A stretch of 64,000 nt of DNA, taken from assembly GCF_030684315.1 (NCBI RefSeq), contig NC_081354.1, positions 76,831,222 to 76,895,221 on the forward strand, given 5' to 3'. Positions within the stretch are counted from its first letter, which is position 1, and every line of letters begins with the position of its first letter. A program made the translations under genes and the position numbers. Positions 4,966 to 58,129 of this stretch are shown here, one piece after another. The stretch is from Stegostoma tigrinum (taxonomy: Eukaryota). The notes beneath the pieces are model-generated. The model saw only the letters and a program-made list of their open reading frames with translations, was not told where the DNA came from and made no database searches.

Positions 4966-4989
4966 TGTAGTTTATTATTTTCTGACTTT

Positions 4990-6440: not shown

Positions 6441-6536
6441 TGATCTGGTAATGAACTGGCTGTCCTGTTCTCCAATTAATTAAAATCTTGAGGTATTGAA
6501 AATTCCACATCTATGAAAGCATTTAGAGCTCATTCA

Positions 6537-16765: not shown

Positions 16766-17422
16766 ATTGCGAACCGAGCGGAGATGTTCTGGAAAGCAAT
16801 AAACAACTGCAACTCCCAGTCGCAAACCATTTCCACTCCCCCACCCATTCTTTAGATGACATGTCCATCATGGGCCTCCTGCAGTGCCACAATGATGCTA
16901 CCCGAAGGTTGCAGGAACAGCAACTCCTATTCTGCTTGGGAACCCTGCAGCCCAATGGTATCAATGTGGACTTCACCAGCTTCAAAATCTCCCCTTCCCC
17001 AACTGCATCCCTAAACGAGCCCAGTTCGTCCCCTCCCCCCACTGCACCACACAACCAGCCCAGTTCTTCCCCTCCACCCACTGCATCCCAAAACCAGTCC
17101 AACCTGTCTCTGCCTCCCTAACCTGTTCTTCCTCTCACCCATCCCTTCCTCCCACCCCAAGCCGCACCCCCATCTCCTACGTACTAACCTTAACCCACCT
17201 CCTTGACCTGTCCGTCTTCCCTGGACTGACCTATCCCCTCCCTACCTCCCCACCTATACTCTCCTCTCCACCTATCTTCTTTGCTCTCCATCTTCGGTCC
17301 ACCTCCCCCTCTCTCCCTATTTATTCCAGAACCCTCACCCCATCTGCCTCTCTGATGAAGGGTCTAGGCCCGAAACGTCAGCTTTTGTGCTCCTGAGATG
17401 CTGCTGGGCCTGCTGTGTTCAT
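16766..17422 (+). mobile_element. Penelope-like element 3' fragment (GIY-YIG C-terminus plus pseudo-LTR) with a ~32-nt 5' micro-inversion
   Basis: Nearly identical to 25304-25926. Encodes PVANHFHSP..H...RRLQEQQL.F.LGTLQPNGIN. 16766-16797 is the reverse complement of the immediately upstream PLE sequence. Confidence 0.92.
17352..17379 (+). ncRNA. Minimal type I hammerhead ribozyme motif, core intact
   Basis: cu-CUGAUGA-A-GGGU(CUAG)GCCC-GAAAC-GUC-ag. Confidence 0.75.
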
Positions 17423-18789
17423 GCAATGACAGCATATGGCATTTGAAATAAACTCTAGGTATACAAAGCAACGAATCTTGTTTTTTACATTCTTGTGGTC
17501 AACATTTCATTTACAACAAACATCTGCGCTTTAACTACCAATCTCAAGCAACTAACATTTTATGGATTCGAGCACAAATTCATTCACTGTAGTCCAATAA
17601 TTTATTTAATGTTGTTGAGTTACCTGGATGTGCCTGACAAATAATGATATTTATGCAGTGCTAGATTGTAGGTTGTGTCTCTCTCAAGAAGGTTTTGAAC
17701 AATTTCGTGCCAACAGGGACTCTCTTGCATTCTTAGAGAGTATAAGTGGTGGTTCAGCAAAATCTGTCGGTGCGAATAAAGATACTCTCTTATGTTCAGA
17801 GTATTCAGGCACCTTTTCTAACTTGTCCAAGATAGTCACCTTAATTGATGAAAGTAAATTTAAATTCACCCACTGGGACTCAGCATACTTTAATAAAATT
17901 CTGAGCAATGACTTGAATTGTATTAGCAATACAAAAGACAATTTGGGAGAGCTGCAGATGTGATTACTTATAGTTATGCATTTGGAGGCTGTTGAGAAAA
18001 TGCATAATAGAGTGAAAAGGTCATTTGTTTCAACTTGTTGCTAAAGTCATTACTTTCACTTTAATTGTCAGAAAAGCTTCAATGGCTTCGAGTTTTGAAA
18101 TTTATCGTGGCTGTAAAGGAAACAAATATGTTCTACTTTTTGTATTTTAAGTATTTTTGAATTAGGTCTGCTCATATTTTTGAAGTGTTTCCATTTGGAG
18201 GCACTGCATGATAAGCACTCAGTTTGTCTCCAAGATAATGATAAGACGCTGCATTCTTAGAAAATAGCAAAACAATAAACCTCAGTCCAATTTAACACAA
18301 TGCTGTCCTCTAGACACTGAAGTTTGCTTCAGGAAAATACTGCATTTGGAAAGTGGTTTGAGGATTTATGGCATTCGCTTTTGCATTTTTCTAAAAACAA
18401 AGACAGCAATTGATAGTTGAAGGAAGATTATAATCTAAAATGATAACTAAAGGAAACAGAGTCATGCCATGGAAAAATAGTCAAGACTGAAATAAGCTTT
18501 GGTTCAAAGAATAATTCAAGAAGAAGCAGGAGGGGATTGAAATTGGGTTTAGTTGCAAATTTGCAGTCACTTTGCATCTGCATGTTATTTTCTGCCACGT
18601 CACTCTAAATTGTATGCGTCAGGACAGAATGTGAATCCTAAGCTAAAATATTCTAGGTATGTTTTATGTTGCACCTCATAGAATACCAAGATGTAGTGCA
18701 ACCTTTAAAGAACAGGACACTGAGTAAATTATTAATGTGGAACTGTCAGTTCGAGTTAAATAAAGCTGCAGCTGGTATTGGTAAAGCAA

Positions 18790-19130
18790 TATTAAGACAA
18801 TCACAAATCCCAAAATCCCTCACAGATGTATCATGAAACAGAATTTGATGCTATATTTGCCCTTGTAGATGGTTGAGGTTGTGGCAAATGTCCAAAAGCT
18901 TGTTCATAAAACTAAGTTTAAAGGAACAGGTCAAAAGCAGAAAGAGAGGCAAAGAGTTTCAGAGAGGAGCAACCAGAGCTTCAAACTTAGCTGAAGATAT
19001 CTCTGCCAAAAATTGGTCATTAAAAGCTGGGAATGTTCAAGAGCGCAGAATTGGGGGAGTGCAGGTAGCCAGGGGCTATGGAGGTAATAGGGATTATGGA
19101 GATGTGGTAGAATATTCCCCATGGGCTTTG
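18790..19130 (-). mobile_element. Old L2-like LINE 3' fragment
   Basis: Similar layout to the other L2 remnants at 4700, 20400 and 36510. Confidence 0.45.
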
Positions 19131-19739
19131 GAATCTGCCATTATAGTCAAATATGGGGCATTTCACACTACGTGGAGAACAGACACAGTCGTCACCTTCT
19201 CACTGTTGGGCAATTAATGACCAGTGGGCAGACTCACTATCCAATTGAGGCTGGGGACAGGATCTTAAAGTTAGACAGCCAATAAGAGGCCCCCAGCACT
19301 GAAGAAGCAGTGAGAATACTTTTTTTAATTGAATGAGGGAATGGTTGCCTCATCTCCAACTTCATCAACTTGAGATAAAACAAATGGTCTCAGGCACTGG
19401 ACCATTGAAGGAAGACCGCTCCATCTGGCTGGTAATGGCAGGGAGAGCTGGCAGAGCCTCTAAACTTACCTGGAGCTCTGGGCTTTCTCCATTGGGCTGC
19501 AGCCAGAGGTCTCCTTCAAAGCTGCCCTTTGGTGCCTCCAGGGACTTGGAGACAACTGGAAAATTCCAGCTGGCTTTTGCCTATCCTCAAGCTCACCATC
19601 CTACCACTGGGGAAATAACATGGAGATAGAATGGGGCTGGCAAACCAAACAGAACTTAGATGTCAGCCTGCCTCATTCCCCATCTGCAATGGAGTTGAAA
19701 AGCTCCACTGGAAAATCATTCTTCTATGTAGCACTCTTC

Positions 19740-19915
19740 ACAACAGACCAATGCACTGCACAGCCAATGAAGTTCTCTTGAAATGTAGTCCTTAGTATAA
19801 TGTAGGGAAATGTAGCATTCAATTTGCGAGCTATATGCTTCCACAAGCAGCAATGATGTAAATCATCAGGCCATTGTTTTTAGGTGTTAGTTAAGGGTAG
19901 TAAAATATTTTTGCA
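19740..19915 (-). mobile_element. Decayed Deu-domain SINE (SacSINE1/AmnSINE1-related) fragment
   Basis: cagccaatgaagt...tgaaatgtagtc...taatgtagggaaa...caatttgc...ccacaagcagcaatg resembles the reverse strand of DeuSINE bodies and the copies at 27050 and 55598/57968. Confidence 0.55.
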
Positions 19916-21400: not shown

Positions 21401-22631
21401 GTTTCTGTAGGTACCTTAGTGTGCAATCTGTGGGATTAATTGAACATCACTTGTAACACATTGTGGCAGGACTAGTGCAAAATCCAGTTTCTAGCCTTTT
21501 AGACTGTTGACGCAGCTATTGAGTTTCTGAGGTGACATTCGCTATATTAACACTTCACAAGAATACATACTTTTTGTCACAATTGAGCTAAGTGAAATAG
21601 AGGTGGATGACCAGAGATAAAACCTGTAGGCATTTTATAGTTCATTAGAACATGTTTTCCTTGTCTAGACATTTTGTAAGGAATATTCCCTTGTCTTGGT
21701 TGATGTGTTGTTTGGTCTGTAGTATGAAAGTGTGATCACGTGCTACGTCTGATAAAGATTTTGTGTTGGGGAAAATTGGTACTTTCCCATGCCAGAGACT
21801 GCACCTTACATTATGTTTCAATGGGTATTCTTGCATCTTTAACAGCTTACAGTTTCAGAAACCCAAAGTATCCAATTGTGGCAATATAAATTGAATGTTC
21901 ACTGTGCATTGTTCTCTGTCTACTTTGTTGTCAAAAAGCGTATTTGGAAAAGCAAGCTACTTCATTGTGACATTTTCCAGTTGCTACATGCTAAGACTTA
22001 AAGAGAAGTGTTTAAGATTCTGTCATATTACCCCAAAAATTACATAAATAGATGAGCAACTCATTAAATCCCCAGCAAAAATACAATGTTAAAACAAACA
22101 TTCACCAGTGTCAGTAAAGGCAACTGATGCCTGACTGAAAGCAGATAATGGCTACCACCAAGATGAATGTCAGTGATTAGCTTGTGCAGGTTTGAAGGAA
22201 ACATCATAAGGTAGAAATAGTACAGTAGATACCTAAACCCCTCACCTAGCTGAAGATTAGAGTCAATTAAAAGTGTGTTTGTTATACTGGAACAGTTGAC
22301 ATCTATTGTGCAGCACCAGCAAGGTCAAACATGATTGAGAACACCTCTATTATGTTCAATTATAGCAAAGATACATTGCAGGTTCATGTGATTAAAGCAG
22401 CTTTTCTTTTCTTAGTGTTAGTTTTAATCTTAACTGTATGATAAATGCAGTGTATTCAAACAGCAATGGAGGAGGCACGAAAGGATAGAATGCAACAGAA
22501 AATATCAAAGAACAGACTCTGCTTCTGATCTATAAGTCAAATTAGAACTTCTGGATCGGCAACACAGTGAGCAAATTGAGAAAATGATCCTCAATATCTC
22601 CACTTGAAACAGCCCTTGATTTTTCGTTAAG

Positions 22632-22740
22632 TTCTAAAGAAGGGTCACTGGAACTGAAGCATTCATTCTGATTTTTCTCCACAGATGCTGCCAGATTTGC
22701 TGAGTTCTTCTAGCAATTTCTGATTTGTTTTTGTCTTTGA
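22632..22740 (+). mobile_element. Old PLE pseudo-LTR remnant (second subfamily) with a degenerate hammerhead
   Basis: ttctaaagaagggtcactggaactgaagcatt...cagatgctgccagatttgctgagttcttctagca has the same layout as the young pLTR (hammerhead, then gatgctgc...ctgctg.gtt...cagc). Confidence 0.6.
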
Positions 22741-23319
22741 TTTTTCATGTCTGTTCACTGCAAGGAATTAGGCCATTTAACTGAGATGCTTGACCATGCC
22801 ATTGTAAATATCCAGTGGTGAAACACTGATAGAGTACTCTGAAAATGCAAATGCAGTTTGTCTGAAATGAGGAGCATTTTAGTGTCACTTCCCAGTCAGA
22901 TTTCCCTGTTTTTAGAAACAGAGATTTTGCTGCTTCTGGATATGTCAAAAACCAGTCATTCAAATACAAATACTATAAACATTCTCAGTCCACTTCGTTT
23001 GTGTTGGGATTAGTTAAACCCAAAATACTACCCATGCCAAGTGTGACAGCGTTATATGGTATTGTTTACTGCATATCAATCTTGTTATGGATCTCAACAT
23101 GAATTTTCCATCCTGAATACCAATATGTTGTTCAAGTTTGTAGTATGGTAGCTGGTTTTGACTCAAATTTGGGGACAACGCAGATACAGCAGCAACTTTT
23201 TCCCATAAGGAGTGAAAAACAAAATTGAAATACCCTCAATTTCTAACAACATGGTTGCAAGCACACTGGTTAAATTTGTCATCAGTATATTGCAGTGTGG
23301 TGTCAATTTGACTGTTCCG

Positions 23320-23403
23320 CTGATGCTGCCTAGCCTGCTGTGTTCCTCCAGTCCTCCATTGTGTTATCTCTGACTCCAGCATCTGCAGTTCTTACTATAT
23401 CTT
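23320..23403 (+). mobile_element. PLE pseudo-LTR terminal fragment with tail but no hammerhead
   Basis: ctgatgctgcctagcctgctgtgttcctccag...gttatctctgactccagcatctgcagttcttactatatct matches 45285-45366. Confidence 0.8.
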
Positions 23404-23557
23404 AACAGAAACATTTATTCTTTTTGACTTGTGGTATCCTTTGTACTAAACAATGGTCAAAAGCAAGAAAACAGGTCAGTCATTTGTCACCAAGATAATA
23501 AAATGTGAGGCTGGATGAACACAGCAGGCCCGGCAGCATCTCAGGAGCACAAAAGCT

Positions 23558-23585
23558 GACGTTTCGGGCCTAGACCCTTCATCAG
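23558..23585 (-). ncRNA. Minimal type I hammerhead ribozyme motif, core intact, in the inverted pLTR
   Basis: Reverse complement reads CUGAUGA-A-GGGU(CUAG)GCCC-GAAAC-GUC. Confidence 0.75.
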
Positions 23586-24051
23586 AGAGGGGGATGGGGT
23601 GAGGGTTCTGGAATAAATAGGGAGAGAGGGGGAGGCGGACCGAAGATGGAGAGAAAAGAAGATAGGTGGGGAGGAGAGTATGGGTGGGGAGGTAGGGAGG
23701 GGATAGGTCAGTCCAGGGAAGACGGACAGGTCAAGGAGGTGGGATGAGGTTAGTAGGTAGGAGATGGAGGTGCGTCTTGGGGCAGGAGGAAGGGATGGGT
23801 GAGAGGAAGAACAGGTTAGGGAGGCAGAGACAGGTTGGACTGGTTGTGTGATGCAGTGGGGGGAGGGGACGAACTGGGCTGGTTTTGGGATGCGGTGGGG
23901 GAAGGGGAGATTTTGAAGTTGGTGAAGTCCACATTGATACCATTGGGTTGCAGGGTTCCCAAGCGGAATATGAGTTGCTGTTCCTGCAACCTTCGGGTGG
24001 CATCATTGTGGCACTGCAGGAGGCCCATGATGGATATGTCATCTAAAGAAT

Positions 24052-25598
24052 AACTCCCCACCTACGTCCGTGACACCACCCATGCCCTCCAACCTCCTCC
24101 AGGACTTACAATTCCCTGGCCCCCAACACCTCATTTTCACCATGGACGTCCAGTCCCTATACACCTGCATTCCGCATGCAGATGGCCTCAAGGCCCTCCG
24201 CTTCTTCCTGTCCCGCAGGCCCGACCAGTCCCCCTCCACCGACACCCTCATCCACCTAGCCAAACTTGTCCTCACCCTCAACAACTTCTCTTTCGATTCC
24301 TCCCACTTCCTACAGACTAAGGGGGTGGCCATGGGCACCCGCATGGGTCCCAGCTATGCCTGCCTCTTTGTAGGTTACGTGGAACAGTCCCTCTTCCGCA
24401 CCTACACAGGCCTCAAACCCCACCTCTTCCTCCGGTACATTGATGACTGTATCGGCGCCGCCTCTTGCTCCCCAGAGGAGTTCGAACAGTTCATCCACTT
24501 CACCAACACCTTCCACCCCAACCTTCAGTTCACCGGGCCATCTCCAGCACATCCCTCACCTTCCTGGATCTCTCAGTCTCCATCTCAGGCAACCAGCTTG
24601 TAACTGATGTCCATTTCAAGCCCACCGACTCCCACAGCTACCTAGAATACACCTCCTCCCACCCACCCTCCTGCAAAAATTCCATCCCCTATTCCCAATT
24701 CCTCCACCTCCGCCGCATCTGCTCCCACGATGAGGCATTCCACTCCCGCACATCCCAGATGTCCAAGTTCTTCAAGGACCGCAACTTGCCCCCCACAGTG
24801 GTCGATAACGCCCTTGACCGCGTCTCCCGCATTTCCCGCAACACATCCCTCACACCCCACCCCCGCCACAACCGCCCAAAGAGGATCCCCCTAGTTCTCA
24901 CACACCACCCCACCAACCTCCGGATACAACGCATCATCCTCCGACACTTCCGCCATCTACAATCCGACCCCACCACTCAAGACATTTTTCCATCCCCACC
25001 CTTGTCTGCTTTCCAGAGAGACCACTCTCTCCATGACTCCCTTGTTCGCTCCACACTGCCCTCCAACCCCACCACACCCGGCACCTTCCCCTGCAACCGC
25101 AGAAAATGCTACACTTGCCCCCACACCTCCTCCCTCACCCCTATCCCAGGCCCCAAGATGACATTCCACATTAAGCAGAGCTTCACCTGCACATCTGCCA
25201 ATGTGGTATACTGCATCCACTGCACCCGGTGCGGCTTCCTCTACATTGGGGAAACCAAGCGGAGGCTTGGGAACCGCTTTGCAGAACACCTCCGCTCGGT
25301 TCGCAATAAACAACTGCACCTCCCAGTCGCAAACCATTTCCACTCCCCCTCCCATTCTTTAGATGACATGTCCATCATGGGCCTCCTGCAGTGCCACAAT
25401 GATGCCACCCGAAGGTTGCAGGAACAGCAACTCATATTCCGCTTGGGAACCCTGCAGCCCAATGGTATCAATGTGGACTTCACCAGCTTCAAAATCTCCC
25501 CTTCCCCCACCGCATCCCAAAACCAGCCCAGTTCGTCCCCTCCCCCCACTGCACCACACAACAAGCCCAGCTCTTCCCCTCCACCCACTGCATCCTAA
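24052..25598 (+). pseudogene. PLE polyprotein remnant: reverse transcriptase, Cys-rich linker and GIY-YIG endonuclease, with one frameshift near 24536
   Basis: RT motifs FTMDVQSLYT, QTKGVAMGTRMGPSYA, FLRYIDD and FLDL. Linker FPCNRRKCYTC. Endonuclease NVVYCIHCTRCGFLYIGET...RFAEH...VANHF...E...GIN. The sequence ttcaccgggcc lacks one T relative to ttcacctgggc in the second copy. Confidence 0.93.
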
Positions 25599-25855
25599 AA
25601 CCAGTCCAACCTGTCTCTGCCTCCCTAACCGGTTCTTCCTCTCACCCATCCCTTCCTCCCACCCCAAGCCGCACCCCCAGCTACCTACTAACCTCATCCC
25701 ACCTCCTTGACCTGTCTGTCTTCCCTGGACTGACCTATCCCCTCCCTACCTCCCCACCTATACTCTCCTCCCCACCTATCTTCTTTTCTCTCCATCTTTG
25801 GTCCGCCTCCCCCTCTCTCCCTATTTATTCCAGAACCGTCACCCCATCCCCCTCT

Positions 25856-25883
25856 ATGATGAAGGGTCTAGGCCTGAAACGTC
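25856..25883 (+). ncRNA. Hammerhead motif with core substitution C3>A, probably inactive
   Basis: AUGAUGA-A-GGGU(CUAG)GCCU-GAAAC-GUC. Confidence 0.65.
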
Positions 25884-26149
25884 AGCTTTTGTGCTCCTGA
25901 GATGCTGCTGGGCCTGCTGTGTTCATCCAGCCTCACATTTTATTATCTTGGATTCTCCAGCATCTGCAGTTCCCATTATCACTGAGTCATTTGTCACCAT
26001 GTACCTTACATATTGTTATGTACTGGGGATAAAATTGTCCTGGTTTGGTTCAAGATTGGATTTCCCTTTCCTTTCTAATGCTTCAGCTGAAATTGCAAAT
26101 ACAGGAGAGTAGCACGGAGGGACCTTATAACCAACCACTGGATTTTATA

Positions 26150-26245
26150 ACAAAGTGTGGGGCTGGATGAACACAGCAGGCCAAGCAGCATCTTAGGAGC
26201 ACAAAAGCTGGTGTTTCAGGCCTAGACCCTTCATTAGGAGGGTCT
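26150..26245 (-). mobile_element. Solo ~96-bp PLE pLTR end with a mutated hammerhead and a TSD
   Basis: Reverse complement of the pLTR 3' end, with core CUAAUGA...GAAACACC. 13-bp TSD with one mismatch: actggattttata (26137-26149) and actgaattttata (26246-26258). Confidence 0.85.
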
Positions 26246-27644: not shown

Positions 27645-30200
27645 CACCCACTTACAGGCGAAATAACAGGCGACAAAGCCAAGTTGAGTAAAATCGCTGA
27701 CAAAGATGTAACCTTCTCCGAAAAGCTCAGTGCGTTCTCTGCTTGTTTTGAACAGAAGGTCAGTGAAATGATGCCACCTGCCCTGACAGCCTCAGCAGCA
27801 CCTGTACCCACAGTCACCGCCACATGCATCAGACCAGCCTTCTTCAGGGTGATCCATGGTAATTGACAGGCCTGGATGGAGTCCCCTGAGTGGACCTGCT
27901 GGCAGAAGTATTCGCAAACATCTTTAACCTCACCTTACTGTGATATGAGATTCCCATCTGCTTCAAGAAGACCACCATCATAAGACCACAAGACATAGGA
28001 GCAGAAATTAGGCCATTCAGCCTATCGAGTCTGCTCAACCATTCAATCATACCTGATAAGTTTCTCAACCCTATTCTCCTGCTTTCTCCCCTTAACGCCT
28101 GATCCTCTTGATAATCAAGAACCTATATACTCAATGACCTGGCCTCCACAGCCTTCTGTGGCAGTGAATTCCATAGATTCACCACTCTCTGGCTGAAGAA
28201 GTTTCTCCTAATCTCCATTCCAATAGGTCTTCCCTTTAATCTAAGGCTATGCCGTCGGGTCCTAGTTTCTCCTACCAATGGAAACATCTTCCTAACATCC
28301 ACTCTGTCCAGGCCTTTCAGTATTCTGTAAGTTTCAATTAGACCCCTCCCCTCATTCTTCTAAACCCCCATCGAGTGTAGACTCAGAGTCCTCAAACATT
28401 CCTCATATGTTAAGTTTTTCTTTCCAGGGACCATTCTTGTGAACTTCCTCTGAACTTACTCCAGGGCCAGTATATCTTTCCTGAGCTATGGGGCCCAAAA
28501 CTGCACACAATAATTGAAATGAGGCCTGACAGAACCTCAGAGGTACATCCTGGCTTTTATATTCAAGTCCTCTCAAAAGAAATGCCATTCCATGCATTTG
28601 CCTTCCAAACTACTGACTCAGCCTGTAAGTTTACTGAAGAGAATCCTGAACTCGAACCCCCAAGACTCTTTGCACCTCAGACTTCTGAATTTTCTCCCCA
28701 TTTAGAAAATAGTCCATGCTTTTATTCTTCTTAGCAAAGTACATGACCTCACACTTTCAGTGCTCCATCTGTCCAAATCCTTCTGCAATCTCCCCGCATC
28801 CTCAATACTACCTGCCCCTCTACCTGTTTCATCCCGGTGCTAAAGAAAAATCAGACAACATGCCTTAATGACTGCTCAATAGTTGCTCTGACATCCACTA
28901 TTATGAAATGCTTTGAGAAGTTATTAATGGCAAACATCAACTCCAGCCTCCCAGATTGCTTTAATGTTCTACAATTCACCTACCATCATGATAGATCCAC
29001 GGCTGACACCACCTCCCTGGCCCTACACACATCCTTGGAACATCTGGATAACAAGGACACCTAAATCAGACTCCTAATTACTGACTGTCGCTCTGCCTTT
29101 CAACACCATAATTCCAACCAAACACTTGTCCAAACTCTGGTTCCGAGGACTGTGCTCTCTCCTGCGTAGCTGGATCTTCAGCTTCCTGACTCACAGGCCA
29201 CAATCAGTAAGGATAGACGACAGCACCTACTCCACAATAATCCTCAACACTGGTGTCCACAAGACTGTCCTTTACTTTAGTCCTTAAATACTCACTATTG
29301 TGTGGCCAAATGCAGTTCTAACTCCATTTAAAAATTTGCTGGTGACACCCCTGTAGTGTGTCAGATCTCAAACAGAGATGAGACAGAGTCTGGGAAAAAG
29401 ATAAAGAGTTTAGAGGCACGGTGTCAAGATAACAATCTCTCCCTCAATGTCAGCAAAATGAAGGAGCTGGCCATCATCTTCAGGAAGCAGACTGGAGGAC
29501 ACATCCTTGTCTGTATCAATGGTGCTGAGGTGGAAGTGGTCTAGAGCATCAAGTCCCTTGGACTAACTATTACCAAGGATCTGTCCTCATTCATGCATGT
29601 TGGCACTACTGTCAAGAAAGCATACCAATGCCTCTACTTCCTCATAAGGCAAGAGGAATTTGGCATGTCCACAAGGAATCTGATGAATGTTTATAGATAC
29701 TCCATGGAAAGTATTCTATCCAGATACATCACAGCTTGGCCTGGCAATTGCTCTGCCCAAGACCTCAAGAAATTACAGGAAGTTGTGAATGCAGCTCTGA
29801 CCATAATGAAAACCAGCCTTCCTTCCATTCAATCCATCTATATTCTCTCTGCCCGGGAAAGCAGCCAACATAATCAAAGACCCCTCCCACCCTGCTTATA
29901 TTCTCTTCCACCCTCTTCCATTGAGCAGAAGATACAAAAGTTTGAAAACATATACCAACAGATTTAAGAACATCTTCTTCTCCATTGTTATCATACTTAT
30001 GAAGGGACCTCTGATATATTAGAGTTGATTTTTCTCTGTACCTTCTCTGTAGCTGCGTAACACTATATTCTGTATTCTGTTCGATTACACTGATGTACTT
30101 GCACAAGATATGATCTGTTTGGTTAGCATGCAAAGCAATACTTTTCACTGTGTCTCAGCACAAGTACACTAAGAAGTCAAGTCAAAGATAAATAAATAAA
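27645..30200 (+). mobile_element. Rex1/Babar-clade LINE (RT region and 3' end), split by a CR1 insertion
   Basis: TCLNDCSIVALTSTIMKCFEKL...LQFTYHHDRSTAD..SLALHTSLEHLD (28837..29064), CQDNNLSLNVSKMKEL and VKKAYQCLYFL...ESILS..ITAW.GN. The tail ends aagtcaagtcaaagataaataaataaa. The KTTI|IPV motif is split at 27981/28828. Confidence 0.88.
27982..28828 (-). mobile_element. CR1 LINE 3' fragment nested in the Rex1 element
   Basis: Begins with the CR1 tail (taagaccacaagacataggagcagaaattaggccattcagcc) and contains CR1 ORF2 C-terminal motifs on the minus strand. Confidence 0.88.
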
Positions 30201-36788: not shown

Positions 36789-36988
36789 GATAACAAGTTG
36801 TAGAGCTGGATGAACACAGCAGGCCAGGCAGCATCAGAGGAGCAGGAAAGCTGACGTTCTTCAGAAGAAGAGTGCAGACCCGAAACGTCCGCTTTCCTGC
36901 TCCTCTGATGCTTCCTGGCCTGCTGTGTTCATCCAGCTCTACACTTTGTTATCCCAGACTGTAGCTTGGGCAGTTCCTACTATCTCTG
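36789..36988 (+). mobile_element. Palindromic non-coding PLE mini-element (inverted pLTR ends) with a 14-bp TSD, inserted in an L2-like remnant
   Basis: Arms ~36789-36858 and ~36884-36953 are near-perfect reverse complements. TSD agcatatatatgga at 36777-36790 and 36989-37002. The hammerhead at 36862-36889 has U4>A. Confidence 0.88.
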
Positions 36989-38049
36989 AGCATATATATG
37001 GAACCTTACATTAGATTGGGTGGCTGCTGTGGAATGGCATGTCGATGACAAATAGAGGGAGGCGATGGATCGGTATGCAAGCAACCATAGATACAAATCG
37101 TCTTAGTTTCCAAATAACAAACCACTCTGAGATCTACTCCTGAAAGTTATGGATTGTAAAAATACTCAAAGGTCTGTATTTTTAAAATTTTTTTCACATG
37201 CTCTGGCACCTCTGTTGTGTAGATATTTAAAACCAGCATTCAGCTGTAACTATTCCAGTTACAGTACTTACCATGATTAGACTGTGGGAAATAACTGGCC
37301 GGTTAGTCAATGAAGGAGCCCAGCAGTAGACAATTAGGTGGTATTGATATACAGCGCCTGTGAATCATGGACGTAATGTCCAAAATCTTGATATTTGTAT
37401 TATCACAAAGTTAAAATTGGATTTAACTTGTGACACAAGCAGAATAAAATCAAGGATGAAAACTATTTGTCTATTTATGTTTCATGATCGTACCAGTTGC
37501 GATGTTTTTGTACCTATGGTATTTTAATGTAAGAACTCTTATACCTCTAAATAGTTGGTCTAGTCCACAAAACTGGTTTTTAGGTCATTAATACAGGCAA
37601 ATCAATTGGCTTACCTGTACCTTTTGTGAACACTGATTTTGCTGATAAAACATTACACGGCCAAATATTGTTTAGCACTAACACTCAGCAACACGCTATT
37701 TAGTACATTTTAAATAGACATTAGAAACACTGATCTGTTCCATTGTCAGTCATTTGATTTTCCACAAGCATTCAGCATTTTTAGCACCAGGTGCTAATTC
37801 TGAACTTTTAAATCACCCTGCCTTCACAATTTAAATCTCCTTGGTGTATGAGTTTCAATCATAACTCAATTGTTAGCTTTCTTCGTGTCAGAATATTGAG
37901 GGTTCACTTCAAGCGTACATTTTTGTAAATGTTATTAACTGCTAAACCTGTTTGAACATGGGATTTTTGTGCAGTCCATCCTACAAACTGTGACACTGAC
38001 CCCAGTCACCCATAAATCTAAGAGGAAATTCAAGTGAAACCTTTTTACT

Positions 38050-43284: not shown

Positions 43285-43618
43285 ATCATTCAATTTCTAT
43301 GATGTGGATGAGGCCATTCAGCCCAATGAATCTGCACAAACCCTCTGATGACCATCCCACCCTGTACCCCATCCCCATAACCCCACATTTCCCGAGGTTA
43401 ATCCACCTAGCCCTCACATCCCTGGACTTCACAGGGCAACTTAGCATAGCCAACCCACCTAACCTGCACATCTTTCGAAGTGTGGAGCACCAGCTGGAAA
43501 TCCCCACAGATATGAGGAGCACGTGCAAACTCCACTTGGACAGTCACCTAAGGCAGGAATTGAACCAGAATCCCTGGCACTGTGAGGCAGCAGTGCTATC
43601 TGCTAACTAATTGCCACA
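43285..43618 (-). mobile_element. HE1-like V-SINE
   Basis: Reverse complement of the head, V-domain and tail seen at 6537 and 49333. Confidence 0.85.
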
Positions 43619-45136
43619 CTCTTCACAGGGATGGAGTTGTGAGGGGATCTCCACTCCCAGGTCCATAATCCCAAGTTAGGCTCACCAGTGCCTGGGTAAG
43701 TGCCAGGTAAACTCTTAATAAAACAGACCCCCTCCAAAGCAGCTAATGTGGGACTCTCACCAGCTGTCCAGCTGGTGGGCAAGATTTCCATCACCTGGAA
43801 TAAATTGCATTACATAATCTTACCAGTCACAACATCGAATTACCTCTTAATGCTTCCAAAATGTTTTCTGCCCACTACTGTTCTCCATACATGGAAGACC
43901 ATTCCAGATTATTAACTGGTGCATGAAATGCACCTTTCGAAATCATAACTAGAATTGTAGAAGAACTGATTTTCTTGAAGGAACAGAAACGTTTCCAATT
44001 TGTGAATTGTCTTTGTAAAGCACAAAGAGAGACATTATAAAACAAGTGAATTGAATGTCCATGAAATGATACTTCATTGATCAGTGCTAGACAGAATATT
44101 TGAGTTATGGTCTGACTCGAAAGCTTTATGGAGTTTGATCGTGACGATCACTGATTTGTATGCTCTAGTTTTGACAATATGGATGAAGTTTCACCTTGGT
44201 TTGTTGGCTCCTGCTTTACATTGTGTGAGAGTTCTTAACATTGAATTCAACTATGTCACCATTAGAGTGGTGTTCATGTGTCAACTCAGCTGCTTCCTAA
44301 TATGCAATACTTTCCATTGATTCAATGCTCTCTCAACGGAAGCATTTTGTGTAACTCATTTAGTAAGTTCTGCTTCCTCCAAATTAATTACTCCTTCTAC
44401 TTTAAATGCTCAGTGCTCAAAATTGAACAATTTACATTGTGTTTCTGTAACCAAGCCATTGATGCAAATTAGAAATTGTAATGGTGCCAATGTTTGTCCT
44501 TGGGAGACTGCACTCAATGTTTCCCACTCTTCTCCCCTATCACTGCCACTCCACAGATTTACATGTATACCATAATGAATAGCTATTGTTTTGTTTTTCA
44601 GCCAATTTCTTATCTATTCCCAAATTTTACAACTTTTATCAATAATATAATACCTCACCTTGGATCCTGGGGCTGGCACTGAGTTCTAGAATATGGACAA
44701 TATGAGCTAATTTAGTCTGTGCCAGTGATGTATTACAAATAACAAAAACATGCCATTATCTGGAAAAAGTCATTTTACATGAAATACACTGCTGTTGATT
44801 ATTAATGTGGAATCTGAAAGGTGATTACTACCACTGCATAAGCATTATATCAGTCTGTATAATGTGTTGGTCAGAAAAATGGTGAGATTGGCATACTAAC
44901 CCTCCTCAATGGGCATGATTGGGCATCAGCACCTAATAAGCCATCTACAGCTGGCCAGGATATGTCTTTTGGACTGACATGCCAAACTTGTGCAAGGCTC
45001 AATAGCTCCCACGGTGAAGTCAGGGCTTCCTCAAAGTGGGGCTGGAGCAACTGTGTGTGACTTATTTTCCAAGCTTACATGGCAATTCAGTAGTATCATG
45101 TAGGAGGTGGAGGATTGGGAAGTTCAGTTTATTTTT

Positions 45137-45366
45137 GAGATAACACACTGTGGAGCTGGAAGAACACAGCAGGTCAGGCAGCATCAGAGGAGCAGGAAAG
45201 TTGACGTATCGGATCAGGACCCTTCTTTAGGTTCTTCATTTCTGAAGAAGGGTCCCGACCCGAAACGTCAGCTTTCCTGTTCCTCTGATGCTACCTGGCC
45301 TGCTGTGTTCCTCCAGCTCCACACTGTGTTATCTCTGACTCAGCATCGGAAGTTCTTATTATTTCT
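45137..45366 (+). mobile_element. Palindromic non-coding PLE mini-element with back-to-back hammerhead motifs and a TSD
   Basis: Arms 45137-45230 and 45242-45335 are reverse complements around an 11-nt spacer. TSD ca(g/a)tttatttttga at 45125-45138 and 45367-45380. Confidence 0.9.
45242..45269 (+). ncRNA. Minimal type I hammerhead ribozyme motif, core intact
   Basis: CUGAAGA-A-GGGU(CCCG)ACCC-GAAAC-GUC. The opposite-strand partner (45203-45230) has CUAAAGA and GAUAC substitutions. Confidence 0.75.
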
Positions 45367-48300
45367 CAATTTATTTTTGATGCTGGATGACCATTTTCTT
45401 GACCTGAGATCATGTCTACAGATTTCAACAGATGTCAGCAGCTTTCCCTAGCAAAACCTTGCAAGGTGCTGAAAGATCCCATTGACTACAGGGCACAAAA
45501 CACATGGAAGCTCTGCATCATACATTAGAAATGCCATTGAATTGTTTAAATCAGCAGATCATATGCGGGGTGGATTGAAGTTGGCTCATTTGGGAGCAGT
45601 CAGTTGGTAGCAGATGTCTTAAAGGGTGGAAGGACATTCATTGAAGGAATTTGCCCAATCTTACTTCAAGTTTGATTTTCATCCTACCTGATTTGTTCTG
45701 AACAAAGGCATTACACAATCAAGAGTAGAGAACAGAATGGCTCGAAAAAATCACTATTCAGCAAAATGCCAACTTTTTTTACATCAATTGTTTGTGGATT
45801 TCATCCATGTATTTCAGTCCTCAAATTTTTTAACGCATACTGTGCCAGATTTTGAGAGGAACTTGCATCAATGCAACAAAGCCCAGCATTCATTGGAATT
45901 GCTTCTGCCCCAACTGTCATCTTTTATCAGCAGTTTTCGCAAACAGATCTAACAGTGATCACTATTATAACATCCCATCCAGTGAGCTGTGTAACTTGTA
46001 CTGGAGTTAATTGAGCAGAAAAGGTTTCTGTTAAAGCCAATTTTACTATATTGTTCTCATTGTCATCACTTAACTTGCTTTGTCGATAACTGACAATTGC
46101 AAGTTGACTGCGATAAAATGTTATCCAAGTTTAAAATATTCATGAAAACATTATTATTGTGTAATAATTTCATCTCCAGAATTTTGAAGAATACCTTGAA
46201 AAGATTGATTAATTAAATTTACTTTCCTGGTACAGTGCAGTTAATTGGATCATTTTGATGCATTTTTAAAATAATCTAACTTTCTGATATTAGTTCCTGG
46301 TGACATGCATCTTTAACCGTATTTGTGGGACGAACCTAAACACAAGAAAGACTTGCATTTTTTGAACACAACTCTCAAATGTCTCAAAAGATTTCACTTA
46401 ATACGATGACATTACAAAACGGTTGCTGTTATGTTGGGAAGATGTGGATCAAGATGAGAAATGTTATGTTAACTGTCTTTTGTTGTTTTGAATGGAAAGA
46501 TGTTAATTTATGTTTATGCACAGGGGAATAAAGCAATAAGGAGATTTTAAATAGACAAAATTCCTCCTGTTGATAATTTTACAGAAAAGATATACAAACA
46601 GGCATACACAGGAAATCCTGCTTTGTACTTGAAACTGTTTTTAATAAAAGCAGTGGAAAGAACTTCATTCCAAAAGTATTCTGCAGATTATTTTCAAAAT
46701 CTTGAGTATTTTATATTAGTTGTTTGGATTGATGCCGTAATTAGTGTCCAGCTTCTATCTCTGTGGCCTTCAATTGAATTTTGTCTGGCTGTTGAAAGCT
46801 GGTTTGCATGTTCCAATTAGTTCTACTACATTAATATGGCTTCTAAAGAGAGCCTGACACAAAAATGTAGTAAATGAAAAAATTAAGCAAAATATTCATT
46901 TGAAGGGACAGCCTAAAGATAAAGCGCTGGAAGTAACAGTGACCATTTGTTAATTGAAAACTGTCCAGATGGTTTGCCCCATTCCCGTGACTTTCTGAGC
47001 CCATGACGTTTGGGTGTCAGTCCCGTTATTCTGACTTCCCTCAGTATTCTCCTGCACAGTTCTTCTCAAAACAACACACCTTTCGGCTGCAGTTATTTCT
47101 CTGTTCCAGGCAGCACTCATCCCCACCAGAGCGACAGACACTCACACTCACACCTCATCTTTCTAAACTCTCTCAGCTATCATTCCATTTGACAGATGGT
47201 GCCCTTCCATTTTCTGGACACTAAATATTACCAGCACTGATCTCCCTGTCACCCACCCCGACCTCGGATCACATCCACTTGTTTTCCCTGCAGAAGCAGA
47301 TACGGAATAACTTGGTGAAAGGTAGAAATGGTGGGTGGGACAGGCAGTGAGGGTGCTGTGGGTCATCATGGCGGATGCCTTGTTGGCTACAGGCAATGTG
47401 TGTTCATCTAATGCACAGGGAAGAAGTCTTATTCCAGGAAGCTGCAGATATTCACAGCAACTAGCCTCAACCTCATGAGACACTGATGCTTACGCATATT
47501 TAGAGAGTGCATCCTCTAACTGTGGACCTTATTTTGTGGGTCTCACCTCCTTCCATTTGGATTCTAGAGTGCATGCGATTTGCGAAGCAGAATGTGATTG
47601 AGAGGAAGGCAGCTGATACTGCTGCTTGTGTTGCTGGACAAGTTAACAGTGATAGACGTCCTGCTCTTGTCGCTCAGCAGATGTGGACAGTTGTGCTACA
47701 TAAACTGCTGTCAAGACAAGATTGGCAACTGGGCAGTGAAGCTGAAGGTGGCTGAAGTGCAGGGCAGGTGAATGACTTTGCAATTACCTATTGTATAGCA
47801 ACTACAATTCCTGACAGATGGATTGCTATAAACAGCAGCCTTTTTCCTGGTCTGTAGTTCTTCAGTTTAACTGAGTGAAACCTTCCAAGCTTGCTAGTTT
47901 CAGAGTGAACGCTCTTCCTGCTGGATGGTGGCCTAGTCTGACCTGGTGGGTTGCAGTCACAGCTTGTGACTATTCCCAGGAGTGAATCCATGTGCAGAAT
48001 CTGACCGTTGTCTTGCTTAGGCCAGAGGGAGTCTCCACTGCATTCACAGCCCATCACCAGGAGAAAATAGGGTAATGGTGATGGCAGGGTGGGGTGATGA
48101 GATCACATTGGGATCACAACCAAATTTCTGCAATTTCTTACCCTGCAAGCCCCTAAACCTGCTTCACAAGTTAGAACTGTTTCATTGCATTTTTCAATAA
48201 TTTGAAATAATGTGTTAAAATTTGCTTTTGTGATGGCAAAAATCCATCTGTACTGTAGATTAAAGTGTAAAGAAAGAGTTTATAAATGGAATGGTCATTT

Positions 48301-49332: not shown

Positions 49333-49645
49333 AGGGCGGCATGGTGACTCAGTGGTTAACACTGCTGCCTCTCAGTGCCAGCGATCCGGGTTTGATTCCA
49401 CCCTCGGGTGACAGCCTGCGTGGATTTTGCAAATTCTCCCCGTGTCTGCATAGCTTTCCTCTGGGTGCTCCAGATTCCTCCCACAGTCCAAAGATGTGCA
49501 GGCTAGGTGGATTAGCCGCGCTAAATTGCCCATAGCATTCAGGGATGTGGAGATTAGATGGCAACAGGGGGTGGGTCTGGGTGGGATGCGCTGAAGGTCG
49601 GTGTTGGGACAAAGGGCCTGTATCCACACTGTAGGGATTCTATGA
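49333..49645 (+). mobile_element. HE1-like V-SINE inserted in the Harbinger-like region
   Basis: gggcggcatggtgactcagtggttaacactgctgcctctcag...gggtttgattcc head, V-domain and tail acactgtagggattctatga. Confidence 0.88.
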
Positions 49646-51619: not shown

Positions 51620-52812
51620 TAATCAGCTAGAATTCTTTGAGAAAGTCACAAATGGGATAGATAAAAGAGAACCTTTGGATGTAATATATTTGGATTTTCA
51701 GAAGACACTTTAGCAAGATACCACATTTACTTAATAAGATAGGAGCCCATGGTGGTTAAGGTATTATATTAGCATGATAAAGAATTGGTCACCAATAAAA
51801 AACAGACACCTACATTAAAGAGGCAATTTCAGGATTGCACCCTATAACTCATGGTGTGCCACAAAGAGTAGCACGGGGCTATGTTTATTTTGAATATCTA
51901 TGGATGACTTGGATGAGGAAAGTGAATGTACTATAGCTAAGTTTGTATATGACACCAAAATAGGAGAGAAGGCAAGTAGTGAGGATGATAGAGTCTGCAG
52001 AAGGTTACACAAGTGGGCAAAAATTTGGCAGATGGAATATAATATAGGGCAACGTGAGGTTATGCACTGTTTGGGAAGAATAGAGGAGCTGAAAATTATT
52101 TAATTGGTGAAAGACGTCCGTGAATCACAAAAAGCCAACATCTAAGTTCAGTGGGTAATAAGGAGGCAAATGCAATGTTAGCCTTTACTTCAAAGGGAAT
52201 GGAGTATAAGTAGGAAGGTATTGTTAAAGCTATACCAGGCACTGGTCAGACCATAGCTGGAATACTATGAACAGTTTTGGACCCCTAATCTAAATAAAAA
52301 TATACTGGCATTGGAGATAGTCCCGAGAGTGTTTGCTTGGCTGGTATCAGTTATGGAGAGACTGTATTATGAGGACAGGTTGAGGAGGTTAGTCCCGTAG
52401 TCATTAGAAAATAGGGCCATGAGAGATGACCATAATGAAACATACAAGGCTCTTAGAGGTTTGACACGGTAGATGCACTAACATTGTTTCCCCTTATGGG
52501 AGAGTCTAGGACCAGTGAGCATAATCTCAGAATAATGGGTCACACATTTCAGGCAGAGATGAGGAGGAATTTATTTTCTAAGGAGGTAATAAGTCAGTGA
52601 GATTCTTTACCACAGAAGGCTTTCAATGCTTGATCTTCACTATTCAAGGCTGAGATAAACAGATTTTTAATCAGCAAGGGAATCAAGCATTATGGCAAAA
52701 AGGCAGAAATGTAGAGTTGAGGTTTATCAGATCACCCACAATCTCATTGAATGATAGAACAGACTCATAGGGATGAATGCTCTTCTCTGCTTCTGTGTCA
52801 TTATGACTTACT
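51620..52812 (+). mobile_element. Decayed CR1 LINE (RT to 3' end, internally deleted)
   Basis: LEFFEKVT...DVIYLDFQK, DDLDE...AKFVYDTK and WQMEYN motifs, followed by a CR1 3' UTR. Confidence 0.85.
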
Positions 52813-55280: not shown

Positions 55281-55744
55281 AAATATTGATGACATAATTC
55301 TGTGGTTTGAACATTAAAGAATAACTACAGAGATCCGAAATGAGAAAAATACCTCCTAAGATAGACAGGGAAGTTTATTTATGTGGGAGATGAATATGCT
55401 GCCACATTCATGTTCTTCTTTGAAACTATATGCTTTGAAAAAAATGGAATGTGAAAAAATACAGTGCATCTTTAATCTTCAAATCAGCTACACAGTGGTC
55501 ATTTGGAAATATTAAGGGGTTTTTATAAAGTATATGTCTTTTAATAACAATTTGAATTTGTGGCACACCTGTTTAATTCTCCGGTTTCAATATGTCTTAC
55601 AGCTGATGAAGTACTTTTAATGCAATAACTTCAATAATGTATCAGAGATAATGGGAACTGCAGATGCTGGTGAATCCAAGAAATACAAAGTGTGGAGCTG
55701 GATGAACACAGCAGGCCAAGCAGCATCTCAGGAGCACAAAAGCT

Positions 55745-55772
55745 GACGATTCGGGCCTAGACCCTTCATCAG
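55745..55772 (-). ncRNA. Hammerhead motif with substitution GAAAC>GAAUC, probably inactive
   Basis: Reverse complement reads CUGAUGA-A-GGGU(CUAG)GCCC-GAAUC-GUC. Confidence 0.65.
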
Positions 55773-57865
55773 AAAAGGGGGATGGGGAGACGGTTCTGAA
55801 ATAAATAGGGAGAGGGGGAGGCAGACCGAAGATGGATAGAGGAGAAGATAGGTGGAGAGGAGAGTATAGGTGTGGAGGTGGGGAGTGGATAAGTCAGTCC
55901 GGGGAGGATGGACCGTTCGAGGAGGCGGGATGAGGTTTGTAGGTGGGAAATGGAGGTGCAGCTTGAGGTGGGAGGAGGGGATAGGTGAGAGGAAGAACAG
56001 GTTAGGGAGGCGGGGACGAGCGGGGCTGGTTTTGTGATGCAGTGGGGGAAGGGGAGATTTTGAAACTTGTGAAGTCCACATTGATACCATTGGGCTGCAG
56101 GGTTCCCAAGCGGAATGAGTTGCTGTTCCTGCAACCTTCGGGTGGCATCATTGTGGCACTGCAGGAGGCCCATGATTGACATGTCGTCTGAGGAATGGGA
56201 GGGGGAGTTAAAATGGTTCGCGACTGGGAGGCACAGTTGGTTATTGCGAACCGAGCGGAGGTGTTCTGCAAAGCGGCCCCCAAGCCTCCGCTTGGTTTCC
56301 CAAATGTAGAGGAAGCCACACCGGGTACAGCGGATGCAGTATACTACATTGGCAGATGTGCAGGTGAACATCTGCTTAATATGGAAAGTCATCTTGGGGC
56401 CTGGGATGTGGGTGAGGGAGGAAGTGTCGGGGCAAGTGTAGCACTTCCTGCGGTTGCAGGGGAAGGTGCCGGGTGTGGTGGGGTTGGAGGGCAGTGTGGA
56501 GCGAACAAGGGAGTCACGGAGAGAGTGGTCTCTCCGGAAAGCAGACAAGGGTGGGGATGGAAAAATGTCTTGTGTGGGGGGGTTGGATTGTAGATGGTGG
56601 AAGTGTTGGAGGATGATGCATTATATCCGGAGGTTGGTGGGGTAGTATGTGAGAACGAGGGGGATCCTCTGGGGGTGGTTGTGGCAGGGGCGGGGTGTGA
56701 GGGATGTGTTGTGGGAAATGTGGGAGACACGGTCAAGGATGTTCTCGACCACTGCTGGGGGCAAGTTGCGGTCGTTGAAGAACTTGGACATCTGGGATGT
56801 GCTGGAGTGGAATGCCTCATTCTGGGAGCAGATGCAGCAGAGGCGAAGGAATTCGGAATAGGGGATGGAACGTTTGCAGGGGGGTGGGTGGGACGACGTG
56901 TATTTTAGGTAGCTGTGGGAGTCAGTGGGCTTGAAATGGACATCAGTTTCTAGCTGGTTGCCTGAGATGGAGACCGAGAGGTCCAGGAAGGTGAGGAATG
57001 TTTTGGAGATTGCCCAGGTGAACTTGAGGTTGGGGTGGAAGGTGTTGGTGAAGTGGATGAACTGTTCGAGCTCCTCTTGGGAGCAAGAGACGGTGCCAAT
57101 ACAGTCATCAATGTAACGGAGGAAGAGGTAGGGTTTGGGGCCAGTGTAGGTGCAGAAGAGGGACTGTTCCACGTAACCTACAAAGAGGCAGGCATAGCTT
57201 GGGCCCATTCGGGTACCCATGGCCACTCCCTTTGTCTGTAGGAAGTGGGAGGAATTGAAAGAGAAGTTGTTGAGGGTGAGGACGAGTTTGGCTAGGCGGA
57301 TGAGGGTGTTGGTGGAGGGGGACTGGTCGGGCCTGCGGGACAGGAAGCAGCGGAGGGCCTTGAGGCCATCTGCATGGGGAATGCAGGTGTATAGGGACTG
57401 GATGTCCATGGTGAAAATGAGGTGTTGGGGGCCAGGAAATTGGAAGTTCTGGAGGAGGTGGAGGGCGTGGGTGGTGTCAAGGACATAGGTGGGGAGTTCC
57501 TGGACCAAGGGGGAGAAATTGGAGTCCAGATAGGTGGAGATGAGTTCGGTGGAGCAGGAGCAGGCGGAGACAACAGGTCGGCCAGGGCAGGCCCCACTGC
57601 TTCCCAAAACCAGCCCAACCGGTCCCCGCCTCCCTAACCTGCTCTTCCTCTCACCTATCCTCTCCTCCCACCTCAAGCCGCACCTCCGTTTCCCACCTAC
57701 TAACCTCATCCCGCCTCCTTGACCTGTCCGTCCTCCCCAGACTGACCTATCCTCCCCACCTCCTCACGTATACTCTCCTCTCCACCTATCTTCTCCTCTA
57801 CCCATCTTCCGTTCGCCTCCCCCTCTCTCCCTATTTATTTCAGAACCCTCTCCCCATGCCCCTCT

Positions 57866-57893
57866 CTGATGAAGGGTCTAGGCCCGAAACGTC
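57866..57893 (+). ncRNA. Minimal type I hammerhead ribozyme motif, core intact, in the inverted pLTR
   Basis: cu-CUGAUGA-A-GGGU(CUAG)GCCC-GAAAC-GUC-ag. Confidence 0.75.
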
Positions 57894-58129
57894 AGCTTTT
57901 GTGCTCCTGAGATGCTGCTTGGCCTGCTGTGTTCATCCAGCTCCACACTTGGTTTTCATCAATAATGCAGCAGTCAATTTGCATCCAGCAAACTCCCACA
58001 AATAGCAATATGATAACGAACAGTTAAACCAAATTTTGTAATAGCTATTCAGGGATAAGTATTGGAATAACATCAGCATCACTTTCCCACCATCTCCTAT
58101 ATTATTTGATTTCCTTTGTTCCCAAATTC

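Follow-up and report, generated by a model that had tools for sequence, protein, structure and literature searches.

Penelope-like elements with a minimal hammerhead motif in Stegostoma tigrinum: tiny copies as likely run-off products of a capped RNA

The stretch of Stegostoma tigrinum DNA that was analyzed (64 kb, hereafter the window) holds Penelope-like copies, and the tiny ones are likely to be run-off cDNAs of a capped RNA predicted to start 4–5 nt upstream of the hammerhead core, not a ribozyme-cut family. Run-off copying from the start of a capped RNA would explain how these elements insert. A broader reading is put forward more tentatively, namely that the ~600,000 arms may form a fossil record of Penelope insertion. 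Under it, the hammerhead would be the tip of the capped RNA, one RT dimer would prime both nicks at two fixed sites, solo hammerheads would be strong-stop-like, and the RT would sometimes re-copy the segment from the cap to +37 in a telomerase-like manner, seeding tandem hammerhead arrays. The element itself is of the Penelope type, and its pseudo-LTR carries a minimal hammerhead motif, both kinds being already known.

The coding element and its copies

A preliminary description of this DNA had proposed a Penelope-like element with RT and GIY-YIG domains in a shark. Both domains were matched (RVT_1, E 5.6e-7, 29.9 bits with a cut-off of 29.6; GIY-YIG, E 4.9e-4, 20.8 bits, below the cut-off of 22.6), and one natural frame of 570 aa spans the RT and the C-terminal GIY-YIG, the window's own copies being frameshifted. 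The closest named proteins were those of zebra shark at 92% and of whale shark at 87%; the PDB sequence search gave no match and the protein atlas only generic GIY-YIG clusters. The Neptune-type linker was also found between RT and endonuclease (CX4CXXC, as CNRRKCYTC). The CX2-5CXXC linker type is also common to Nematis; the Neptune clade is a putative assignment from linker and vertebrate host. The unit is ~3.6 kb long, its first 130 nt being the ribozyme and tail, followed by the ORF, whose first in-frame ATG lies after the tail at ~+166 (positions are numbered from core base C3 = 0). The pseudo-LTR was recognized in a partial tandem (locus L247), where a 3' fragment, ribozyme and tail continue straight into the 5' ORF.

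All ten hammerhead sites reported earlier were present, the minus-strand numbers given there being low coordinates. C3, the first core base, lies at 2004, 17352, 25856, 36862, 45242 and 57866 on the plus strand and at 23585, 26237, 45230 and 55772 on the minus strand. The cleavage positions predicted at 17379, 45269 and 57893 were correctly placed, and the distance of the motif from the element end was borne out, the cleavage triplet lying ~65 or 100 nt from the two ends. The whole core is intact in five copies (2004, 17352, 23585, 45242 and 57866) and substituted in the other five (25856, C3>A; 26237, G5>A and a broken triplet; 36862, U4>A; 45230, G5>A and GAUA; 55772, A15.1>U). Hence, the statement that the core is largely conserved goes too far for individual copies.

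Every copy in the window is solo or inverted, and retrozyme-like head-to-tail units with a hammerhead each were absent among them. Two solo tiny copies, both tailless, occupy 2000..2100 (+; old subfamily, core 2004-2031) and 26147..26242 (−; core 26237-26210), and a tailed one at 23302..23405 (+) starts downstream of the ribozyme. The site at 22634, described as a degenerate copy, is indeed a decayed tiny copy (22630..22730, +), but it belongs to family C, another Penelope-like family that carries a hammerhead. The 5'-truncated copy 16766..17425 (+) comprises a 32-bp inverted piece (16766-16797), an endonuclease C-terminus and the core 17352-17379, and its TATA-like TATTTA at 17318 (+) would place the RNA start at 17348.

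Head-to-head insertions make up the remaining copies. In the first, a short inverted arm without tail (23490..24051, −; core 23585-23558) meets a long arm (24052..25991, +) with an RT fragment, a frameshift near 24535, the zinc-finger linker, GIY-YIG, TATTTA at 25822, the core at 25856-25883 and a tail to ~25985; a 15-bp target-site duplication flanks the insertion (left copy 23478..23492, right copy 25985-25999). Two tiny palindromes follow. That at 36789..36990 has a tailless minus arm starting from +22, a tailed plus arm (core 36862) and a 14-bp target duplication (36777-36790 and 36989-37002), and that at 45136..45369 has a tailless minus arm (core 45230), a tailed plus arm (core 45242-45269) and an 11-bp duplication (45128-45138 and 45370-45380). 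In the last, a tailed long arm (55636..57592, −; frameshifted RT and GIY-YIG region, TATTTA 55807, core 55772-55745) joins a tailless short inverted arm (57593..57956, +; TATTTA 57832, core 57866-57893), with a predicted start at 57862.

The motif occurs beyond chance. A loose pattern gave 6 hits and 1.31 ± 1.19 in shuffles, a structure descriptor 105 hits in 1.664 Mb and 0, 0 and 0 in three shuffles, and a tight pattern 128,321 exact matches genome-wide and 0 for its reversed control. The Rfam search suggested earlier returned no hammerhead in the 64-kb window at E up to 5 (7 matches, none hammerhead); matches to microRNA hairpins on the two palindromes, all below threshold, were treated as inverted-repeat artefacts. 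The family covered ~8% of the sampled DNA (138,464 of 1,664,000 bases, computed with the low-complexity filter off) and is therefore a main component of this shark's genome, from which hairpin RNA is likely to arise. Four families whose flanks differ or are unrelated retain the core together with a palindromic helix III, the palindrome being ACGU in the main family and AGCU in family E. The endonuclease region of family C is 42–65% identical to that of the main family, and its long copies carry TATAAA 29 nt above TCAGTT, an arrangement resembling a promoter consensus.

Breakpoints, paired copies and the origin of tiny copies

Breakpoints were mapped on 331 copies located by their 3' part only. 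Starts fell at −8..+3 in 115 of them (9.6 per nt) and over −190..−14 in 36 (0.2 per nt), and 6,931 palindromic junctions genome-wide keep both core starts within 24 bp. Among the 100 palindromic-junction arms listed, counted by hand, 33 stop exactly at −4 and none passes −7. This hard stop at −4/−5 lies 30 nt below the TATA-like box, with TATTTA at −35..−33 in 92 of 101 long copies. A similar pile-up was observed in family C (73/141 starts at −10..+4); family D had none near its ribozyme (1/23 at −10..+4). An untemplated G stands just before a start at −4, −2 or −5 in ~51 of the 100 direct-repeat junctions listed (of 239), by a hand count in which certain loci occur in more than one row. In solo short copies, the CTCT leader does not clearly follow a G (C 24, G 8, T 2, A 0), in a class that included some long copies. 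The TATA spacing, the hard stop and the frequent untemplated G fit a capped transcription start, so that a start site and a cap are predicted here from DNA junctions. The stop also coincides with the beginning of a C-run, so polymerase stalling could produce it. In a set of 20 copies selected because they extend into the 5' ORF, the upstream edges varied, several having the full upstream repeat. The possibility of an intron with its end just above the ribozyme was set aside, the short copies having no shared upstream exon.

The 331 copies included 91 inverted pairs. A tail was found on exactly one arm in 83 of them (shuffle mean 45.7, maximum 63) when small indels were accepted, and in 72 under a stricter call. 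The two arms were of the same length class in 87 of 91 pairs (shuffle mean 52, maximum 67), and a shared flank of at least 7 bp, taken as target duplication, was present in 45 of 60 tested pairs versus 3.7% in controls; solo short copies showed a duplication in 18 of 62. One-tailed pairs of the same length class with target duplications fit two cDNAs primed on both target nicks. Arms share alleles (15/203 mismatches versus 27.8% at random), which could come about by gene conversion, and subfamilies were mixed in 6 of 91 pairs. Correlated arm lengths, sought as a sign of simultaneous synthesis, were not found within long pairs (rho 0.17, p 0.42). Microsatellite targeting was not evident in the flanks inspected.

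Another explanation of the palindromes is fold-back or self-priming, for instance on an antisense template, with an endonuclease cut leaving one tail and −4 being a stall or fold-back point; a route of this kind has been suggested previously (PMC3846280, PMC8557442). It would account for the shared alleles and length class and for the stop at the edge of the C-run, and the TTATC-like motif in which both insertion ends finish could be recognized by the endonuclease. Nevertheless, under it the arm with the tail should in every case extend further 5', and this arm was longer in 9 and shorter in 8 pairs, and in 25 and 23, without bias, so that copying of one arm from the other is excluded. Moreover, other upstream C-runs show no peak, the extra G and the TATA spacing in two families are left unexplained, and PMC11167929 traces the tail to two start sites of the RT. 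Taken as a whole, this explanation is quite improbable.

The mechanism preferred here, run-off copying of a capped RNA, would proceed as follows. The TATA-like box at −34 would drive a capped RNA from −4. The element protein would nick both target strands ~10–15 bp apart, and two cDNAs would be primed on RNA from one source, at ~+92 and ~+127; once joined, these would form a head-to-head insertion in which one arm has the tail. Tiny copies would result where the template is the 5' pseudo-LTR or a short RNA made from a dead pseudo-LTR, both cDNAs then running off at the cap. [quoted passage not shown] The hammerhead, acting as a dimer with help from the protein, is predicted to cut only a minority of RNAs after +27, which would take off the cap or shorten the 3' end.

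The preliminary description had instead separated coding masters from ribozyme-only, ribozyme-processed passengers, which would form a self-propagating non-coding family (SINE- or retrozyme-like) borrowing the RT. This is improbable, although several observations point its way. The ratio of long to short copies in three subfamilies was 70/54 (young), 11/21 and 15/64 (old), so the old subfamily is mostly short and the young one is not. Arms of tiny pairs have rare alleles in common (18 versus 3.9 at random, maximum 12), as if many mutated loci were sources; starts are locally in excess at the cleavage site; and non-autonomous Penelope pseudo-LTR derivatives have been described (bioRxiv 10.64898/2026.07.22.740005). 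Against it, every subfamily holds coding and tiny copies. None with at least 8 copies was short-only or had diagnostic alleles absent from coding copies, in a split based on two diagnostic stretches only, and the tail type of the supposed old passengers occurs on copies bearing RT and endonuclease. The ribozyme is present whole and uncut in most tiny copies, only 6 of 331 copies starting at the cleavage site; tiny copies have no TATA-like box and their junctions vary. Short tandem junctions, the only tandem class counted, were rare (239) compared with the inverted ones (6,931), and a head-to-head pair cannot yield two sense ribozymes in one transcript. In a weaker form of the passenger idea, tiny copies may stem from short RNAs transcribed off dead pseudo-LTRs and copied in trans.

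Conservation and cleavage of the hammerhead

The motif has the features of minimal type I hammerheads in its core (CUGAnGA, GAAA, UH), the extra base after A9 and the G10.1-C11.1 pair, and its palindromic helix III would allow a dimer. Helix I has 2 bp in young copies, as had been cautioned, 2 plus 1 in old ones and 4 bp in family C; the 4–5 bp of the minimal type I were absent from young and old copies. In three subfamilies, the commonest letter at each of the 16 core columns is that of the core, and the earlier expectation of excess core conservation was upheld against the whole flank (0/16 versus 24/99 columns differing, p 0.017) but was not significant against the downstream flank alone (0/16 versus 8/65, p 0.16).

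A rather unlikely reading is that the motif of the young subfamily is a decaying, non-cleaving relic kept as promoter, 5'UTR or protein-binding sequence. Besides the downstream comparison, it draws on the short helix I, adjoined by a U-C mismatch fixed in 150 of ~156, on the 36-nt RNA start, predicted to fold at 84% into a hairpin burying the core, and on the failure of 8 of 9 Xenopus dimers to cleave in vitro. When stretches of 78–139 nt were folded, their stability did not exceed that of shuffles (z −0.3 to +1.1), and predicted dimers were extended duplexes in which the hammerhead form was not obtained. What speaks against a relic is the comparison with the whole flank, with the free position N7 varying between subfamilies while core columns do not, the pair variants in helix I (U-A, U-G and C-G; 15, 47 and 103) and in the last pair of helix II (U-G and U-A; 191 and 56), and the retention of core and palindromic helix III across the four families. 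The evidence supports a minimal hammerhead maintained by selection. A relic is compatible with every step of the run-off mechanism (unit layout, capped start, twin priming, run-off) except hammerhead cleavage. As to the latter, young copies whose first base is that of the cleavage site (+28) numbered 1,001, versus 125 at +26 and 413 at +30, a confounded excess from which some templates may be cleaved.

Comparison with known systems

The association of hammerheads with Penelope elements was published in 2014 (Cervera and De la Pena, PMC4209133) and reported in fish Neptune elements; sharks are not named in its text or two supplement files as examined. The minimal type I hammerheads of that study share with the shark motif the pseudo-LTR location, the extra base between 9 and 10.1, the G10.1-C11.1 pair and the palindromic 15.2-16.2, and occur mostly solo or as opposite-strand pairs 100–700 bp apart. 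Helices II and I have 4 and 2 bp here and 7–8 and 4–5 bp in Schistosoma, helix I of D. virilis also having 2 bp. The copy number, 128,321 exact matches, contrasts with the 2,000–9,000 per genome given there, and truncation points are mapped here but not in that work.

In the study of the Anolis carolinensis element Poseidon (Frangieh et al., 2024, PMC11167929), the anole protein nicks and extends both strands in vitro, uses two internal start sites separated by the tail and takes mainly uncleaved RNA as template. The ribozyme just ahead of two tail-separated RT start sites, the extension of both target strands and the uncleaved main template would have counterparts in the shark. Poseidon belongs to another clade, lacks the zinc-finger linker and starts its ORF inside the ribozyme, unlike the shark ORF. 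In the parts consulted, that study gives neither a transcription start nor a class of run-off products, nor a statistic on one tail per pair.

Neptune elements (Craig et al., 2021, PMC8557442; Arkhipova et al., 2013, PMC3846280) likewise have an RT, a CX2-5CXXC linker and GIY-YIG at the C terminus, together with partial tandems, an inverted 5'-truncated copy, an often one-ended tail and target duplications. Tail and palindromes were put down there to endonuclease resolution or antisense self-priming, differently from here. Non-LTR retrozymes (Cervera and de la Pena, 2020, PMC7229834; Li et al., 2026, bioRxiv 10.64898/2026.07.22.740005), found in one chondrichthyan genome, are also non-coding, hammerhead-bearing and pseudo-LTR-derived. 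They are tandem arrays yielding circular RNA, whereas the shark tiny copies are solo or inverted, with short tandems a small minority.

The link between ribozyme and Penelope and the non-autonomous derivatives were thus already in print, and what the shark copies add is a record of insertion that is unusually easy to read. They give countable answers as to why solo minimal hammerheads are common and why inverted copies are one-tailed, and, the ribozyme being placed at the predicted RNA cap, its role becomes directly testable.

Hammerhead motif and the element that carries it

All ten motif sites of the preliminary description were present in the window; the full core was intact in five of them and carried substitutions in the other five. 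The motif pattern gave 6 matches in the window vs 1.31 by chance, and 128,321 genome-wide vs 0 in the control. An Rfam scan of the window did not recognize the hammerhead motif. ORF fragments in the window matched RVT_1 and, under the curated cut-off, GIY-YIG. A copy outside the window, L236, held a natural 570-aa frame with RT motifs, a CX4CXXC linker and an endonuclease, relative to which both long window copies were frameshifted. The nearest named proteins were those of zebra shark, at 92%, and of whale shark, at 87%, followed by bamboo shark and rays (63–75%), which makes a carpet-shark host likely. The identification of a hammerhead-bearing Penelope element was upheld.

The element unit measured ~3.6 kb in a partial tandem, L247, where a 3' fragment, ribozyme and tail continue into a 5' ORF. 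In this locus (oriented 531-660), numbering from core base C3 as 0, the frame of the main ORF includes an ATG at +46, a TGA at the tail end (~+127) stops this frame and the next in-frame ATG lies at ~+166, an arrangement known from one full copy only; the ATG at +46 may reflect either an upstream ORF or read-through. A 39-bp tandem repeat at the ORF end (window 25386-25526, 17050-17170 and equivalents) differed in copy number among elements. Two ray proteins annotated as host-gene isoforms (P0006, P0089) matched the element ORF at 63–64% and are probably element sequence taken into gene models.

The sample comprised the window and eight blocks of 200 kb drawn from six large contigs (1.664 Mb in total), and copies in it were located by an anchor placed entirely downstream of the ribozyme. 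From 342 anchors, one at a block edge and ten poorly aligned were removed, leaving 331 copies for analysis. The density in this sample was ~200 arms (element copies) per Mb, which extrapolates to ~636,000 arms in the genome, and the element occupied ~8% of the sampled DNA. The window also held other dispersed repeats (1293-3216, 6538-6813, 8699-9184, 14659-15111, 28109-28530, 36158-36485, 43303-43598, 49334-49645 and 51827-52779), some of which we take to resemble CR1-type LINE reverse transcriptase fragments, and one a short interspersed repeat.

Start points and the role of the ribozyme

Among the 331 copies, 115 started at -8 to +3, 89 at +4 to +60, 10 at -13 to -9 and 117 farther upstream. 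The cleaved 3' product would begin at +28, a start found in six copies (6/331), and the proposal of a ribozyme-processed retroelement was largely not upheld. Young copies genome-wide started at +28 in 1,001 cases, at +26 in 125 and at +30 in 413, an excess that is suggestive only, since these three positions alone were compared and microhomology at AGCT or one-base indels explain many of the rows listed. In 100 listed rows of direct-repeat junctions, the first unit ended at +27 in ~7 and at +37 in ~41. Most templates are apparently uncut.

Tight palindromic junctions numbered 6,931 genome-wide; by hand count of 100 arms listed, 33 ended exactly at -4 and none past -7, though the search pattern permitted more. 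TATTTA was found at -35 to -33 in 92 of 101 long copies. Family C, a further hammerhead-bearing family, showed the same pile-up of starts (73/141 at -10 to +4), and here TATAAA lies 29 nt upstream of TCAGTT, an initiator-like sequence with its A at -4; both labels follow the general TATA and initiator consensus. Starts at -10 to +4 made up 6/23 in family E, for which the reference was poor, and 1/23 in family D, with no pile-up near the ribozyme. By hand count, an extra G preceded the start in ~51 of 100 listed direct-repeat rows; a G of this kind is known to be left when a reverse transcriptase copies a cap. The extra G was not clearly present in solo copies. Several copies extended from -4 into the ORF and then showed a second -4 start, as expected from template jumps at the RNA 5' end. 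From these patterns we infer a capped transcription start at -4.

Selection on the hammerhead fold was evident. No core column differed between subfamilies (0/16), against 16/34 upstream and 8/65 downstream; p was 0.017 against all flanks but 0.16 against the downstream flank alone. N7 varied between subfamilies, and the two pairs of helix I were maintained across U-A, U-G and C-G states. Three other families in the sample retained the core despite different stems and flanks, one of them with an AGCU palindrome. Two features count against activity: helix I has only 2 bp, and the 5' end of young copies is predicted at 84% to adopt a hairpin burying the core.

Head-to-head pairs and short copies

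Two long head-to-head insertions (23490-25991 and 55636-57956), each with two arms on opposite strands, and two tiny palindromic ones (36789-36990 and 45136-45369) lay in the window together with several solo copies; target duplications of 9–15 bp flanked the pairs. In the sample, 182 of the 331 copies formed 91 head-to-head pairs (61 short-short, 26 long-long, 4 mixed), compared with two tail-to-tail neighbours. Exactly one tail was found in 83/91 pairs, and a flanking duplication, most commonly of 14–15 bp, in 45 of the 60 better-preserved ones. Paired arms of the young subfamily mismatched at 15/203 variable sites vs 27.8% for random arms, and subfamilies were mixed in 6/91 pairs. Copying of one arm from the other would also yield similar arms, and was ruled out because the tailed arm extended farther 5' in only half of the cases. 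Two cDNAs, each primed on one of two target nicks, would produce such pairs; this two-nick priming fits best and is consistent with the in vitro behaviour of the anole enzyme (PMC11167929).

The tiny palindromes at 36789-36990 and 45136-45369 fold into long hairpins with weak scores against microRNA precursor models, and thousands of such loci could supply small-RNA pathways.

The view of coding masters with ribozyme-only passengers did not fare well, each subfamily having long and short members (young 70/54, middle 11/21, old 15/64). Thirty loci chosen by their old-type tail were examined for upstream content: L055 had RT and endonuclease immediately upstream, L034 an endonuclease fragment, and L038 and L050 retained the upstream repeat. 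A separate family of tiny copies was rejected on the tested sites, as old-type tails also occur on RT/endonuclease-bearing loci. Copying in trans from dead pseudo-LTRs may also occur, given the enrichment of the old subfamily in short copies (15 long, 64 short) and the rare alleles common to both arms of tiny pairs (18 vs 3.9).

Further families and relation to known elements

At least three additional hammerhead-bearing families were found in the sample (blocks L061-L220). Family C (141 copies) has a 4-bp helix I, a GUU triplet and a PLE protein upstream; family D has a long helix II, and a PLE protein match was looked for and not found; family E has an AGCU palindrome and a TATA box upstream. 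Helix I, 4 bp long in family C, is shortened to 2 bp in the youngest subfamily, the one with the most long copies. Short tandem ribozyme repeats also occur genome-wide, with 41–48 bp units running mostly from -4 or -2 to +37 plus an extra G (for instance G000:C4:28276039-28276132 and G000:C1:153245743-153245894). They look like one template segment copied repeatedly and could seed retrozyme-like arrays.

Among the papers listed by a literature search of sources outside subscription journals, none dealt with shark Penelope hammerheads, with a start site placed at the ribozyme, or with twin priming in Penelope elements. Related work includes PMC4209133, PMC8557442, PMC3846280, PMC7229834, PMC2377424, PMC6765202 and a preprint whose supplements name its chondrichthyan and families (bioRxiv 10.64898/2026.07.22.740005). 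The main value of the present analysis lies in the junction statistics, which render the insertion mechanism and the role of the ribozyme testable; the element itself is very abundant and belongs to an already known kind.
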